Sequence record: SRR31156797_760
Direction: 5' to 3' (one strand)
Length of the DNA: 20,000 nucleotides
Shown here: piece by piece, positions 10,881 through 16,400 of the stretch
Position numbering within the stretch: the first letter of the stretch is position 1
Layout: each line of letters begins with the position of its first letter
Position numbers and translations under genes: made by a program
The notes under the pieces: generated by a model
Told to the model about the DNA's origin: nothing
The model's input: the letters and a program-made list of their open reading frames with translations, nothing else
Database searches by the model: none

Positions 10881-12704
10881 TTAGCTATCGCTTTCGGTAT
10901 TCTTCGGGAAAAAAAGTTTCATCTCGGTGCCTTCACCCGGCTCGGAATGAATGACGACCTCGCCCTTGTGCGCCCGCATGATATTCTGGACAATGGCAAG
11001 TCCAAGACCTGTACCGGTCTTCTTGCCGGTCACAAACGGCTTGAATACGTCGCCTTCCAGATTGGGGTCCATACCCGGCCCATTGTCAGCCACAATAAGC
11101 CAGACGCCATCCTTGCCCTGAACCGAAGTCAGCAAAATATGCCCCGGCTTTGCGCACTCCGGGCATCCCTCGATGGCATCAAGGCTGTTGGTGATAAGGT
11201 TGAGCAGGATTTGTCTGAGCGCGTCCTGATCCGCAAAAACCGACTCCGGGCCAAAATTGAACTCCGCCACGGTTTCCTTGTCCTGGAAATCAAACCGCAT
11301 GAGCTGTTTGATGGAATCGCCAAGCGTGGACAAATCTATTTCCATGGGATCAAGCTGACGCGGACGTGCCAAATAAAGCAGGTCAGTAACAACCCGATTC
11401 AGGCGGTCCGCCTCCTGCACCATGGCAGCGGCATACTGATCAAGCGGAGCCTGCCCCTTGAGCTTGGTGGCAAACAATTGGGCAAAACCACGCAATGAAC
11501 TCAGTGGATTGCGCACCTCATGAGCCACTCCTGCGGCCAGAGAACCGATTTCCGCCAGCCGCTTGGCCTCGTTCAAATCTTCTTCGAGTGACCGAAGCTG
11601 GGTGCGGTCGCGTATGAGCACAAGCCGTTGACCGAGCTCAGGAGCTCCACCATCGTCATATTCCTGAAACGGCAACGTCAGAATTTCAAGCTGACGGCCC
11701 TGATAGTCAAACTGCTCCCACTCATACGGCACAGCAAGGCCGGTTTCGTCATGGGTCTTTCCAAAATCAAAATCATGCCAATTGGTACCGATAATCTCGG
11801 GCGCACCTTCTTCTCCTTCAGGAGCAAGAAGCTTCTTGGCCGAGTGATTGGCGGCCAAGACCTCTCCACTCTCGGCCAAAGTAACAAGACCGTCGGGCAT
11901 GTTGTCGAGCAATTTGCTCTGGAACCGTTCTAGACGAATCAGCTGACGGCTGGCCCCTCGACGGCGCAGATAAGCAAACGCCAACGACCAAAGAACAACT
12001 GCGGCAAGAAAAACATATCCGGTTTGATACGTGGCCGCTCGACGATACTGCCGAAACTGGGCCAGATGCTTCTCCGCATTGAGTCCTACCACCAGAAAAA
12101 CCGGCGGTTCTTCTGGCTCTCTTTGCATACCATGCCGCATGCCCTGCCCTTGGCCTTGGCCTCGACGCGGCATATGATTTGAACCATGTTCACCATCTTC
12201 AACAAAGGGAGGCATACCGCTCAAGGTGGATATACCAGGTCGAGCACGCAACCCGGAAATGAGAACACTTTTCTTGCCCACCTGAGCCATCACATGCCAC
12301 GCTCTGCCAGTCTCAATATCGCTGGTCACGGAATCAGGCAGACTAAACACGGGAGTATCTTCTACGGCAGAAGAAACCAGAGGACGGCCATCTTCGCCGA
12401 ACAGAGTAATAAACACTATATCTTCGGATTTGGTCAGTTCAGCAAACAATTCCTCGGACATCGCCTGAAAAAGTTCGGGCGACTGAGGTGTCATTCGTAA
12501 ATTCCGGGCAATACGTAATATATTATTATCCACGCCGCGCAGGATGGAGTTGCCGGTCATGATCATATGATCCTCGACGATCTTGCGCTGCTGTGCAATG
12601 GATCGCCAAGTCAAATAGAGACTTCCCACTCCCAACACGATAAGTGCCAGGACAAGGGCGACCAAAGGTCCTTTTTCCTTTCCGTCGGAATGAACAACTT
12701 CCAT
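10881..12704 (-). CDS. zraS: Membrane sensor histidine kinase with PAS-like domain (ZraS-like)
   Basis: Two TM helices around a periplasmic domain, PAS-like LLDNMPDGLV, H-box AAGVAHEVRNPL, N-box QILLNLITNS, DNGPGM and GTGLGLAIV. Confidence 0.9.
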   Translation of the reverse strand: MEVVHSDGKEKGPLVALVLALIVLGVGSLYLTWRSIAQQRKIVEDHMIMTGNSILRGVDNNILRIARNLRMTPQSPELFQAMSEELFAELTKSEDIVFITLFGEDGRPLVSSAVEDTPVFSLPDSVTSDIETGRAWHVMAQVGKKSVLISGLRARPGISTLSGMPPFVEDGEHGSNHMPRRGQGQGQGMRHGMQREPEEPPVFLVVGLNAEKHLAQFRQYRRAATYQTGYVFLAAVVLWSLAFAYLRRRGASRQLIRLERFQSKLLDNMPDGLVTLAESGEVLAANHSAKKLLAPEGEEGAPEIIGTNWHDFDFGKTHDETGLAVPYEWEQFDYQGRQLEILTLPFQEYDDGGAPELGQRLVLIRDRTQLRSLEEDLNEAKRLAEIGSLAAGVAHEVRNPLSSLRGFAQLFATKLKGQAPLDQYAAAMVQEADRLNRVVTDLLYLARPRQLDPMEIDLSTLGDSIKQLMRFDFQDKETVAEFNFGPESVFADQDALRQILLNLITNSLDAIEGCPECAKPGHILLTSVQGKDGVWLIVADNGPGMDPNLEGDVFKPFVTGKKTGTGLGLAIVQNIMRAHKGEVVIHSEPGEGTEMKLFFPKNTESDS

Positions 12705-12710
12705 ATACTG

Positions 12711-13526
12711 CTACTTGCCTTTGATAATCAGGTAAACATCTTTGGGAGTACTATCGTACTTCTCGGCCAGAGACTTGAAGGAACTCTCAGAAGTAGCATC
12801 CATGCCTGCGGCCTTAAGCTTCGCAAGGACTTCGTCAACATCAAGACCATATGTCTTGCACACATTTCCCACCTTGAGCTTACCGGTGCCGGCGGGTGGA
12901 ACAGCGGGCATTCCCTCGTACAAATCAACGTCCTGACCACCACGAATCGTGTCATACACCTGCTGCGGGCTTACACCCTTGGAACGGGCTATGTCCTTGA
13001 TAAGTGACTGCTCGTTAATGGTGGAATCATATCCGGCAGCGTGAAGAGTTTCCACGGCTTTTGCTGCATCAAGACCGAGAAAACCACAAAATTTCATGAG
13101 CGGGCTTGTTTCTGCGTGACCATATGGAGGATTGCCATAAGTCGTCGTGGCTTCTTCTTTTATCTCCGCAGAGAAATCGAGCAACTGCTGCATGGGCGGC
13201 AGGCCGAGCAACGTACCGACAAGCACGAAAAGCGTCAGAACCAAACTGATAACCATGGGCACCGTCAAAACCACGAATTCCCGGGCACGATTCTTCATGT
13301 AGGCCATGAGCGGCTTCCAGTTTAACCAAATATGCAGGAACATGGCGACCAAAAAAAGCGTTCCCACTGTAGTATGGATGTCCCCCCACTGGGTTTTGGT
13401 TAAACCAAGCAAATGCCAGTCAGCCCAGTAGGCCACGCGTCCCTCGGGTACAACGTACAAAATCACGCTGGTCAACAGCGTGATGAGAAAAGACAAAAGG
13501 CCTGTCAGGGATGTAATTTTCCTCAT
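12711..13526 (-). CDS. DUF4405-type membrane protein with a duplicated C-terminal soluble domain
   Basis: TSVILYVVPEGRVAYW, WGDIHTTVG and LHIWLNW match the DUF4405 pattern of TM His residues. Three TM helices. GAGGAGG RBS, start at ATG 13526 (or TTG 13532). Confidence 0.8.
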   Translation of the reverse strand: MRKITSLTGLLSFLITLLTSVILYVVPEGRVAYWADWHLLGLTKTQWGDIHTTVGTLFLVAMFLHIWLNWKPLMAYMKNRAREFVVLTVPMVISLVLTLFVLVGTLLGLPPMQQLLDFSAEIKEEATTTYGNPPYGHAETSPLMKFCGFLGLDAAKAVETLHAAGYDSTINEQSLIKDIARSKGVSPQQVYDTIRGGQDVDLYEGMPAVPPAGTGKLKVGNVCKTYGLDVDEVLAKLKAAGMDATSESSFKSLAEKYDSTPKDVYLIIKGK

Positions 13527-13606
13527 GGTCAAAATGCCTCCTCAAAAAGATGCATACTCCACTGTTCCGAGTTCTACGCGTGAAGCTATTTGAAGTTTAT
13601 TATTAT

Positions 13607-13677: not shown

Positions 13678-14175
13678 CTAGTTAAAGCGGGGACCCTGAC
13701 CGTTGCAGTTATATCCGTCGCCACGTCCCTGACCATAACAATCGCCATTATATCCACGTCCCTGACGTTGTCCGGGACCACGACCGTTGAATGCTACGAT
13801 ACCGGTTTCTTTTTCGAGTTCAGCACGCATGGAATCACGGGTGTCGCGCATCTGGTCACGCAGCTTGGTCATGTCGGTTGTCAACTTGGTGATCTTCTTT
13901 TCATCAGCATTGCCGCCATTAACCATGGCCTGCAAAGTGGCGTGTTTTGCCCACATCTGATCACGCAGCTCGGTGAATTTGGGCTGGTACTTATCAAAGA
14001 TCTTGTCGACCGCCGCCTGCTTTTCCGGGGTCAGCTGACTGTATACGCCGTTACCGCCGCAACCGTTTCCAGCCCTCTTTCCATGTCCATACCCTTGACC
14101 GGCCATAGCCATTGCGGCCATGCTCAGGACCAGGACAGCTGCCAAAGCCGTGATGGTGATGTTCTTTTTGTTCAT
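13678..14175 (-). CDS. zraP: ZraP/Spy/CpxP-family periplasmic protein
   Basis: Signal peptide (AMA/AG), Gly-rich N-terminal segment, YSQLTPEKQ (LTxxQ), long helical core and Gly-rich C-tail. GGAGG RBS. Confidence 0.85.
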   Translation of the reverse strand: MNKKNITITALAAVLVLSMAAMAMAGQGYGHGKRAGNGCGGNGVYSQLTPEKQAAVDKIFDKYQPKFTELRDQMWAKHATLQAMVNGGNADEKKITKLTTDMTKLRDQMRDTRDSMRAELEKETGIVAFNGRGPGQRQGRGYNGDCYGQGRGDGYNCNGQGPRFN

Positions 14176-14248
14176 TGTTCCTCCGAAAATATTAAAATGT
14201 TTTTTGCAATCAGGATGAAGAGAGTGTGTGATCTTCTGCTACTTATTA

Positions 14249-14264
14249 AGCACACCCCGTGCCA
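14249..14264 (-). promoter_or_regulatory. Sigma54 (-24/-12) promoter of the zraP-like operon
   Basis: Minus strand reads TGGCACGGGGTGTGCT, with GG-N10-GC, about 75 bp upstream of ATG 14175. Confidence 0.8.
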
Positions 14265-14327
14265 ACATTCTAACATCTCTATTTAAAAGGAAAGTCTGAG
14301 AATTCGTCCATATCAAGCAGCATCAAT

Positions 14328-14374
14328 TGTGCACACGACTGCACATACACTGCACAAAACTCGTGCAATGTGCA
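14328..14374 (-). promoter_or_regulatory. Putative activator binding sites (UAS) of the zraP-like promoter
   Basis: TGTGCA-cacgac-TGCACA (14328-14345) followed by further TGCAC/GTGCA half-sites (14351-14374). Confidence 0.7.
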
Positions 14375-14453
14375 AGCAACCATCCTTGACATCGTGGACA
14401 AAAGTCTCACATTTGAACAGGACACAATTTGAACGTCAATCCAAGGTAACGCA

Positions 14454-14657
14454 ATGCCCATATACGAATACATCTGCAAAAAATGCGACAATGAGTTCGA
14501 AGAACTTGTCTTTTCTCAAGACACCACTGTGGCCTGCCCAAAATGTGGCTCGGAAAAAACAGAAAAACTCATGAGTGCTTGCGCCGTACAAACTGACGGC
14601 GGTGGGCTCAACCTCGATGCGTTACAGGATTCAGGCTGCGGCTCCGGCGGCGGCTGA
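14454..14657 (+). CDS. FmdB-family zinc-ribbon protein, possibly extending to 14666 by Sec readthrough
   Basis: MPIYEYICKKC...FEELV...CPKCGS (CxxC-x17-CxxC) is the hallmark of the family. It ends GCGSGGG-TGA. Confidence 0.9.
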   Translation: MPIYEYICKKCDNEFEELVFSQDTTVACPKCGSEKTEKLMSACAVQTDGGGLNLDALQDSGCGSGGG

Positions 14658-14697
14658 GGTATCTAGATTCCGCACCCCGGTCCGGGGACGATCCCTT
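14655..14697 (+). promoter_or_regulatory. Candidate bacterial SECIS element
   Basis: TGA, then 21 nt, then a GGTC apex within the hairpin CCCCG-GTC-CGGGG (14675-14687). A lower stem GAGGTATC / GATCCCTT can form with one mismatch. Confidence 0.55.
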
Positions 14698-14833
14698 TTT
14701 AACAATGACTGTTGACCTTCAATAATCGCTGTCACGGAGTATGGGTACAGCCATTTGCACCGTTTCCTTTCCTTGTAAGAAATGATAGATAAATCAAACC
14801 GGTTTCCACATCTTGACCGTTCGAGGAGCTTCC

Positions 14834-15292
14834 ATGTCGAACAGATTGCCCTGGCCTGAATACTTCATGCGCATTGCCCATTTGGTGGCCCAGCGCTCCA
14901 CATGCACCCGCCGCGCAGTGGGTGCCATTGCCGTACGCGACAAACGCATCCTTGCCACCGGTTACAACGGTGTTCCCACCAATATAGCCCATTGTGAAGA
15001 AGTCGGATGTCTTCGCGACAAGCTTAACATTCCGTCTGGCGAACGCCACGAGCTGTGCCGGGGGCTCCACGCCGAACAAAATGTCATCATCCAGGCAGCC
15101 ACGCACAATCTGGACCTTAAAGGATGCGACATTTACTGCACTACCAAGCCGTGCATCCTGTGCACCAAGATGCTCATCAATTGCGAAGTGAAAAACATCT
15201 ATTTTTCCGAAAACTACCCTGACGAGTTGTCCGAAGAGATGCTCGCCGAGGCTGGAGTGAACTATGTGTTCATGGAAGGCGAATTCATCTAA
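14834..15292 (+). CDS. dCMP/cytidine deaminase family protein (ComEB-like)
   Basis: [32 protein letters not shown] and PCILC zinc motifs. GAGGAG RBS before ATG 14834. Confidence 0.93.
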
Positions 15293-16400
15293 AGACGAAC
15301 AATTCATGGCCGAGGCCGTGAATCTGGCCTATCAAGGGCGTGGCACCACTGCGCCCAATCCCTGCGTCGGCGCAGTCCTCGTGGACGGCGACCAAATCGT
15401 CGCCCGAGGATGGCACACCCGATACGGCCAACTGCACGCTGAACGAGAATGTCTGGCACAAGCCAAAACAAAAGGCGTCAACCCTAACGGGCTGACCATG
15501 TTTGTCACCCTCGAGCCATGCAACCACCACGGCAAAACCCCTCCCTGCACCGAAGCCATCATTGAAGCAGGCATCACCAAAGTCGTTATCGGCACTCGTG
15601 ACCCCAACCCCGTTGCCGCTGGCGGCGTGGAAAAACTGCAAAGCCACGGTATCGAAATCGTGGTGGGTGTCCTTGAGCAGCAATGCAAAGACCTCATTGC
15701 CGACTTTTTGCTCTGGCAGGACTCGCATTCCCCATTCAACATCATTAAAATGGCTGCAACGCTGGACGGGAAAATCGCATCCAGCGCAAAAAAACCTGAA
15801 CCGGTTTCCAGCCCGGAGTCTTTTGCCCGTGTCCACGATCTGCGTGGCATGGTCGGAGCCGTCGTCGTCGGCGGAACCACATTCTACGCCGATAACCCGA
15901 GTCTGAACTGTCGCTTGGAACAATTGCCACCAGATTTTATCCAACCCTTTGGCGTAGTCGTCACGTCACGACTCCCTGAAGATCCGGCGGCACACACCCT
16001 GCTTCGGAAACGTCCAGAACGTGCTATTTTCATGACCACCGAAACAGCCGCCCACAGTGAAGCCGCTGACCGTCTGCGAAGCCGAGGCACCTCGGTCTGG
16101 CCCCTGCCGGGACACCCTGGAGGCCTGGCTCTCTCCTGCGGATTCGAACGACTCCGCTACGAAAAAGGATGTCATTACACCCTGTGCGAAGGTGGTGGAA
16201 GATTTTCCATGGCCCTCATCCAACAGGGACTAGCCGATGAACTCGTCCATTTCGTGACCCCTCGCATACTTGGCGACAACACCGCTCCAGCGGCTTACTC
16301 TGGCCGCAAATCCATCTCCATGGCTGATTCAGTAGACTTCCGTATCATCAAAACGGAAACTACAGGATCGGATATCATGTTGACTTTACGGACAAAATAA
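15264..16400 (+). CDS. ribD: Bifunctional riboflavin biosynthesis deaminase/reductase
   Basis: [38 protein letters not shown] and EGGG. The start is uncertain (15264, overlapping the upstream gene, or 15306). Confidence 0.95.

Follow-up and report, generated by a model that had tools for sequence, protein, structure and literature searches.

Does the TGA codon that closes a small FmdB-family gene end its protein, or does it encode selenocysteine (Sec)? The question is raised by a 20,000-nucleotide (nt) stretch of DNA from sequence record SRR31156797_760 (hereafter, the window). In it, an FmdB open reading frame (ORF) runs into a TGA (14655–14657), a second in-frame stop follows two codons on, and a hairpin and a run of five T residues lie just beyond. 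An original prediction, made from the letters of the window, had proposed a hidden C-terminal Sec at this TGA, and all of these elements were found in the sequence as it had described them. We estimate a probability of about 0.87 that the UGA is read as Sec to give a 70-residue FmdB zinc-ribbon selenoprotein. Comparison with relatives showed that the UGA, the short extension and a GGU-loop hairpin at a fixed distance are conserved at the sequence level, and we infer Sec insertion at the UGA of the window. Support for the prediction came from the TGA of all 17 loci with this tail type and of seven loci found later, from hairpin covariation and from the Sec machinery of the nearest genome (G001). 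The features of the locus, all on the + strand, are as follows.

14443–14446, +: Shine-Dalgarno-like AAGG, 7 nt 5' of the ATG (direct sequence reading)
14454–14666, +: proposed full coding sequence, 70 codons plus TAG; FmdB-family zinc ribbon with a Gly-rich tail, C62-GSGGG-U68-G-I
14475–14546, +: zinc-ribbon core with ordinary Cys codons for C8 (14475–77), C11 (14484–86), C28 (14535–37) and C31 (14544–46), from the translation
14637–14639, +: Cys62, the sole tail cysteine, five residues ahead of the Sec codon
14655–14657, +: TGA proposed as selenocysteine (U68); the TGA is kept in relatives
14658–14666, +: two-codon extension GGT ATC (Gly-Ile, 14658–14663) and proposed true stop TAG (14664–14666)
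14675–14687, +: hairpin in the 3' untranslated region (UTR) resembling a selenocysteine insertion sequence (SECIS), stem CCCCG (14675–14679)/CGGGG (14683–14687), loop GUC (14680–14682), apex GGUCC
14696–14700, +: T5 run, 8 nt 3' of the stem, with a possible contribution to termination; it lies outside the conserved module

A zinc-ribbon gene with an in-frame TGA

The gene starts with an ATG at 14454 and its 3' end reads ...GGC TGC GGC TCC GGC GGC GGC TGA GGT ATC TAG. Gene calling with translation table 11 returned an ORF of 67 amino acids (14454–14657) that ended at the TGA, and the database homologues end likewise, as the original prediction had expected of standard gene callers. With the TGA translated as U, the protein has 70 residues and ends in C62-G-S-G-G-G-U68-G-I. 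Codon 68 is the only in-frame TGA, and all four positions of the zinc-ribbon motif are Cys codons.

Proteins of the FmdB family begin at the initiator methionine and carry two CxxC pairs close to the N-terminus. The window protein has both pairs (C8-x2-C11 and C28-x2-C31), and hidden Markov model (HMM) searches assigned it to the family at 65.3 bits for TIGR02605 (cut-off 31.3) and 59.9 bits for PF09723, Zn_ribbon_8 (cut-off 34.4). Residues M1, C8, C11, C28 and C31 are invariant in three protein alignments: A1 (51 sequences), A2 (a 24-sequence subset of A1, used to find related loci) and A6 (17 sequences). Cys62 is also invariant in A1 and A2 and is at least 90% conserved in A6. An AlphaFold2 model computed from A6 has a three-stranded zinc ribbon with a predicted local distance difference test (pLDDT) score of 79–86 over residues 1–40. 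The low confidence of the tail (pLDDT of approximately 50) is consistent with a flexible arm in the model.

Conservation of the TGA and of the short extension

A protein search identified 89 homologues of the window protein. Reading of the sequences indicated that approximately 46 of these 89 closest database homologues share its tail type, in which a single Cys sits in a Gly-rich stretch and the protein ends a few residues later (...GCGSGGG, ...GGCSGGG, ...GCGSGGFT). Other homologues have a four-Cys tail (e.g., GGCAGCSGGSCSTCGH). Among the tail-type entries are eight named NCBI proteins, assigned to Pseudodesulfovibrio, Desulfovibrio or Desulfovibrionaceae; their lengths of 66–70 residues show that they are cut at the same place.

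From 121 Desulfovibrionaceae genomes we collected the DNA of 30 related loci, and from a collection of species-representative genomes that of another 80; these 110 loci were grouped by the composition of the tail rather than by the stop codon. Loci with no more than one Cys beyond residue 45 were assigned to the single-Cys type, a set of 17 that comprises 13 of the 80 loci, three of the 30 and the window. Their proteins are 43–99% identical to the window protein and come from Desulfovibrionaceae, other 'delta proteobacteria' and metagenome-assembled genomes (MAGs) of Candidatus Tariuqbacter (L112) and Anaerolineae (L120). The controls were 93 multi-Cys FmdB loci; they include L053, an odd 137-residue read-through containing X, and leave out L084, which runs off its contig.

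The two groups differed sharply at the 3' end of the gene. The first stop was TGA in all 17 single-Cys loci versus 18 of the 93 controls (TAA in 38 and TAG in 37), which bears out the expected conservation of the TGA among orthologues. A second in-frame stop followed after one or two codons in 17/17 single-Cys loci and 8/93 controls, and Gly was the first extension codon in 15/17 versus 9/93. The combination of TGA and short extension, present in every single-Cys locus, occurred in one control. The same conservation was apparent at short range: contigs of four related strains carried 6–8 differences from the window over 14400–14780, none of them in the TGA, the extension, the TAG or the hairpin. 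The TGA was unchanged in the covering contigs of three of these strains (X2, X6 and X9), the contigs of the fourth (X8) not spanning it.

The Cys and the proposed Sec are spaced as C-x4–7-U among the single-Cys relatives. We also identified a locus (L062:1501–1713) whose tail lacks any Cys before the TGA (...PSGVGGGG-U-K-V); thus, the Cys partner is not universal.

A SECIS-like hairpin beyond the second stop

The hairpin of the window begins 17 nt past the TGA, and its loop lies 22 nt from the UGA. The stem and GGTC apex noted in the original prediction were borne out; the spacing to the loop, given there as 21 nt, is one nucleotide longer. As described in the legend to Fig. 2 of a recent review, the bacterial SECIS (bSECIS) model calls for a loop of 3–9 nt with a G in its first two positions, an upper stem of 4–16 bp, a distance of 16–37 nt from the UGA and a minimum free energy (MFE) of −7.5 kcal/mol or lower (PMC13188914). 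The window hairpin lies within these limits in its loop (GUC), its 5-bp stem and its spacing. On energy, the upper stem by itself comes to −6.9 kcal/mol and the 50-nt MFE fold from the UGA to −10.1 kcal/mol; the latter includes the lower stem (GAGG/AUC with GAU/CCUU) that had been suggested as a possibility. Taken alone, the RNA signal of the window is weak and the case therefore rests on comparison with relatives. An Rfam match to the ybhL leader (scan of 14560–14780) was rejected as a chance hit, its 13.8 bits being far from the gathering score of 50.

Position 14688, immediately below the stem, is an A in the window and a G in G001 and in the contigs of the four related strains. A G at this position adds pairing below the 5-bp stem and lowers the energy of the 50-nt fold to −13.9 kcal/mol, as compared with −10.1 kcal/mol in the window. 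Thus, the window carries a weaker variant of the hairpin.

Alignment with MAFFT and realignment with a covariance model both misplaced about six hairpins that have other loop lengths and, for this reason, we added hairpin counts made sequence by sequence. A hairpin of at least five contiguous bp with a loop starting 16–24 nt past the stop was present in all 17 single-Cys loci (observed range, 16–22 nt) versus 15 of the 93 controls and 559 of 3400 shuffled sequences. A GGU apex capped such a hairpin in 14/17 relatives, none of the 93 controls and 40 of the 3400 shuffles, which argues that the hairpin of the window is more than a chance structure. The three single-Cys loci without it have GGA (two loci) or GUG. 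On the contiguous stem alone, 14 of the 17 single-Cys loci passed the bSECIS model versus seven of the 93 controls; the window, the G001 locus and L118 failed only on energy.

The stems vary in sequence from lineage to lineage and keep their pairing (CCCCG/CGGGG, GCGGCCCGG/CCGGGCCGC, GGGCUCAG/CUGAGCCC, UUGCCC/GGGCAA and GCGGGGCA/UGCCCCGC). This was also apparent in a structural alignment of the hairpins (A5), in which 78.9% of the cells were paired versus 61.5% in shuffled alignments, with none of 500 shuffles reaching the observed value. Seven of the eight stem pairs change on both sides, and registers slid along the same alignment were 36–49% paired. The hairpin is thus conserved with compensatory changes in the stem, as the original prediction would have it.

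Cross-detection of a curated selenoprotein and the selenocysteine machinery

A covariance model (R1) built solely from the 17 FmdB tails scored the hairpin of the window at 52.2 bits. Run over 151 Desulfovibrionaceae genomes, R1 returned 12 matches in 11 genomes. Three were training loci and one (L153) looked spurious. Seven were further FmdB-type ORFs that end in C-x4–6-U-G(x)-stop or U-A-P-stop and have a GGUC hairpin, adding to the loci in which the TGA is kept. The last match (L147) was to a gene from family 1 of the UXX-star selenoproteins (NF041114, 76.6 bits, cut-off 72), whose product ends in ...GFGGS-U-G-V-stop. Because a model trained on FmdB tails finds this gene, the tail module of FmdB is, as judged from sequence, recognisably shared with a curated selenoprotein family. 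One of the seven FmdB matches (L150, G075:C149:3910–3967) encodes the tail ...GGSCGSGGFT-U-A-P-stop; its upstream frame has no clean zinc ribbon, and a frameshift or assembly error may be responsible.

The genome nearest to the window, G001, has 63% of 31-mers in common with it; its copy of the locus is 95% identical and has the TGA as well. The full set of Sec genes sought under the original prediction (selA, selB, selC and selD) is present in G001, each above its cut-off: selB at 398 bits, selA at 615 bits, selD at 341.6 bits and tRNA-Sec at 81.8 bits. Furthermore, the 10 other tail-bearing genomes tested, among them the Tariuqbacter and Anaerolineae MAGs, all gave a selB score above the cut-off. 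G001 also has four formate dehydrogenase-like genes with an in-frame TGA, whose SECIS loops (GGC, GGG or GGUCU) start 18–23 nt past the UGA. One of these elements (GUCGUC-GGUCU-GACGAC) closely resembles the hairpin of the window (CCCC-GGUCC-GGGG). The selD match in G001 (G001:C1:3423424–3424353) itself contains an in-frame TGA, so SelD is probably a selenoprotein in this genome.

Proposed mechanism and alternative explanations

The recoding mechanism that we propose is the ordinary bacterial one. The UGA at 14655–14657 would be recoded by the standard route, with the hairpin at 14675–14687, located just beyond the TAG (14664–14666), acting as the SECIS. The hairpin would bring SelB, loaded with Sec-tRNA(Sec), to a ribosome that has paused at the UGA and, once Sec is inserted, translation would add Gly-Ile and end. 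The predicted product has a four-Cys zinc ribbon (residues 1–43) followed by a flexible Gly-rich arm with Cys62 and an antepenultimate Sec68 (C-x5-U-G-I-COOH). This Cys/Sec arm would stand where paralogous FmdB proteins have a four-Cys tail (CxxC-x4-CxxC). The C62/U68 pair would most likely serve as a selenenylsulfide redox couple or as a pair of soft-metal ligands on the mobile arm. The redox or metal sensor envisaged in the original prediction is likewise a hypothesis.

Several observations weigh against Sec insertion. The upper stem of the window misses the −7.5 kcal/mol threshold of the bSECIS model unless the lower stem is counted, the 81-nt fold of the window is not stabler than shuffled sequences (z = 0.21), and the Rfam scan of 14560–14780 returned no SECIS family at E ≤ 10. 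The 17 relatives are kin, and their counts overstate the independent support. Alignment A5 was fitted to a structure model and leans toward structure, yet about six of its rows are misplaced. The Sec machinery was demonstrated in G001, a genome that shares 63% of its 31-mers with the window, and not in the window's own assembly. Finally, a search of the 89 database homologues and the 110 loci for a Cys at the exact position of U, the classical criterion of a Sec/Cys pair, found none. Cys and Sec correspond only in position, by way of the multi-Cys paralogues. Their tails consist of CxxC-x4-CxxC plus one or two residues, and in 83 of the 93 the last Cys is followed by one or two residues, the same placement as U in 17/17 single-Cys proteins.

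The weakness of the hairpin and of the 81-nt fold would suit a conventional reading, in which the TGA is a stop that yields a 67-residue protein. The hairpin would then terminate transcription or stabilise the mRNA at its 3' end, and the TAG would be a tandem stop held in reserve. The TGA is where gene callers and public records end the protein, 18 of the 93 control FmdB genes end in TGA too, and the T5 run 8 nt beyond the stem leaves some terminator role possible. However, a TGA in 17/17 loci, a second stop within two codons in 17/17 and Gly after the TGA in 15/17 would be unexpected in untranslated sequence, and just one of the 93 controls combines TGA with a short extension. An ordinary stop also leaves unexplained why stems of varying sequence all keep a conserved GGU loop at a set distance and why R1 also matches the UGA and SECIS of a curated selenoprotein. 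The terminator-only version of this reading lost further ground in a consensus scan of 14150–14900 for intrinsic terminators (GC-rich stem with a T run within 0–2 nt), which found no sites. Moreover, as read from the downstream sequences, the T run that follows the hairpin in the window and in G001 has no counterpart in most relatives. We therefore regard an ordinary stop as quite unlikely.

Very unlikely as a separate account is the production of two proteins, with inefficient decoding of the UGA giving a 67-residue and a 70-residue Sec form in a ratio set by the supply of selenium and with the hairpin doubling as SECIS and weak terminator. Sec insertion in E. coli competes with termination by release factor RF2, according to one report (PMC3834832). 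A form short of only three residues should also fold, and the T5 run of the window and G001 would fit a weak terminator. Nonetheless, the T run is not kept in most relatives, and the proposal, although mixed products that depend on selenium are plausible, is a refinement of Sec insertion rather than a true alternative to it. Read-through by a near-cognate tRNA (e.g., Trp or Cys) stimulated by the hairpin is barely credible. Any downstream structure can raise read-through, but the loop and spacing match the SelB-type SECIS elements of G001 and the published bSECIS model, and selB was found in all 11 genomes tested. The SelB-type loop is what makes decoding without Sec so improbable. Recoding of the UGA to Sec is thus the explanation that we favor.

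Relation to known selenoproteins

The original prediction noted that selenoproteins of the FmdB family had already been reported. This is correct for the family, and the Sec of the reported proteins lies at a different position, in CxxC. Zhang and Gladyshev (2008) predicted two FmdB-family selenoproteins with a CxxU motif from the Global Ocean Sampling metagenome (PMC2398784). Two reviews (PMC9312934, 2022; PMC13188914, 2026) list FmdB selenoproteins as U/CxxU or UxxU, with no accession. The metagenomic proteins and the window protein belong to the same family (TIGR02605/COG2331), and both were predicted from an in-frame TGA and a bacterial SECIS. They differ in that the metagenomic proteins carry Sec in the zinc-ribbon motif, whereas the window protein has Cys at all four motif positions, the proposed Sec third from the C-terminus and the SECIS past the stop codon. 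Our search of the literature on FmdB, UXX-star and zinc-ribbon selenoproteins, which covered main texts, came upon no FmdB protein described as having a C-terminal Sec. Within the same limits, the text of deep-Sep (PMC12013277) and of Peng 2016 (PMC5029168) does not mention FmdB or a zinc ribbon. The published FmdB selenoproteins that we found carry Sec only inside CxxC and not in the tail.

Sec at or near the C-terminus is listed for other folds. The table of PMC13188914 has no FmdB form with a C-terminal Sec and includes the UXX-star, KCU-star and Cys-Cys-COOH families, which carry Sec at or near the C-terminus. The same source attributes the UXX-star families (NF041114, NF041211 and NF041212) to Zhang and Gladyshev (2008) and to Haft and Tolstoy (2025). 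Like the UXX-star proteins, the window protein would have the C-terminal pattern G-x-G/S-U-x-x-stop, with a hairpin bearing a GGU loop in the 3' UTR behind it. Unlike the UXX-star proteins, which are glutaredoxin-like, it has a zinc-ribbon fold. The window protein gave no match at E ≤ 1 to NF041114, NF041211, NF041212, NF041197 or NF049953. NF041197, the dual CXXC motif small (seleno)protein (OS_HP3), is likewise small, has two CxxC motifs and has a Sec form; it differs in that it does not match the window protein, and G001 encodes a member of it at another locus (80.1 bits).

G001 also contains a glutaredoxin-like UXX-star-type gene (L129, G001:C1:808564–808677, − strand) that ends in ...RGS TGA CAC GTT TAA (U-H-V-stop) and whose tail is built like that of the FmdB gene. 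Its hairpin (UCGGCA-GGU-UGUCGA) lies 19 nt past the UGA and folds at −6.4 kcal/mol, weaker than that of the window. The gene scored 32 bits with NF041211, below the cut-off.

A SECIS located beyond the stop codon can work with a penultimate Sec, as illustrated by rat thioredoxin reductase 1 (Sec498-Gly499-stop), which, according to PMC3834832, was made in E. coli with a 17-nt fdhF-type element (GGUC loop) placed after the gene; very little selenoprotein was made without the element. The arrangement in E. coli of the Gly-Cys-Sec-Gly arm of the mammalian reductase is similar to that proposed here in having Sec near the C-terminus, a flexible Gly arm, a nearby Cys and a SECIS after the stop. The Cys and Sec of the reductase are adjacent, whereas those of the window protein would be five residues apart and without a flavoprotein domain. 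The resemblance is one of analogy and not of homology.

If the UGA is indeed read as Sec, public records shorten a whole group of FmdB proteins by 2–3 residues and omit their most reactive residue, and relatives from several bacterial lineages have the same ending, likewise overlooked. The locus would also offer a natural example of a bacterial SECIS located wholly in the 3' UTR and would raise by one the selenoproteome counts of sulfate reducers and related anaerobes. A Sec near a conserved Cys on a flexible arm would then point to the functional part of a family that is very common and has no assigned function. Moreover, a 70-residue protein with a C-terminal peptide makes an easy test case.

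More speculatively, and in our estimate rather unlikely, the single-Cys FmdB proteins could be a widespread, uncatalogued selenoprotein subfamily that has a portable module of Sec tail and 3'-UTR SECIS in common with the unrelated UXX-star proteins. Since termination at the UGA removes only three residues, selenium supply could determine whether the Sec or the truncated form is made, and the protein would then report directly on selenium (or soft-metal) status, or switch with it, instead of serving as a constitutive redox enzyme.

Genomic neighbourhood

Divergent from fmdB is a gene (13678–14175, − strand) for a 165-residue protein of the PF13801 family (heavy-metal resistance, ZraP-like) with ends rich in Gly, Asn and Cys. 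Genes for a dCMP deaminase and then RibD are located downstream of fmdB. The order ZraP-like (PF13801), fmdB, dCMP deaminase and ribD is confined to close relatives, and distant fmdB loci have no neighbour in common. Furthermore, the ZraP-like gene and the dCMP deaminase-ribD pair adjoin with no fmdB between them in three genomes of the same genus (loci L154, L155 and L156; genomes G121, G005 and G076). Carriage of the gene thus varies within the genus. With the gene order restricted to close relatives, unshared by distant loci and kept without fmdB in three genomes, we rejected the neighbourhood as a clue to function, and the functional link to a divergent metal-stress gene drawn in the original prediction is unsupported.

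Beyond the ZraP-like gene are genes for a DUF4405 protein (12711–13532, − strand) and a histidine kinase-like ORF (10881–12704, − strand). On the other side of fmdB, the dCMP deaminase ORF (14834–15292) and the ribD-like ORF (15264–16400) overlap by 29 nt (15264–15292). We also identified a multi-Cys FmdB paralogue in many Desulfovibrionaceae (L022, L025, L026, L028, L033 and others) directly 5' of an ORF whose product starts with MK..IATRGS.LALWQA and which is presumably porphobilinogen deaminase (hemC)-like.

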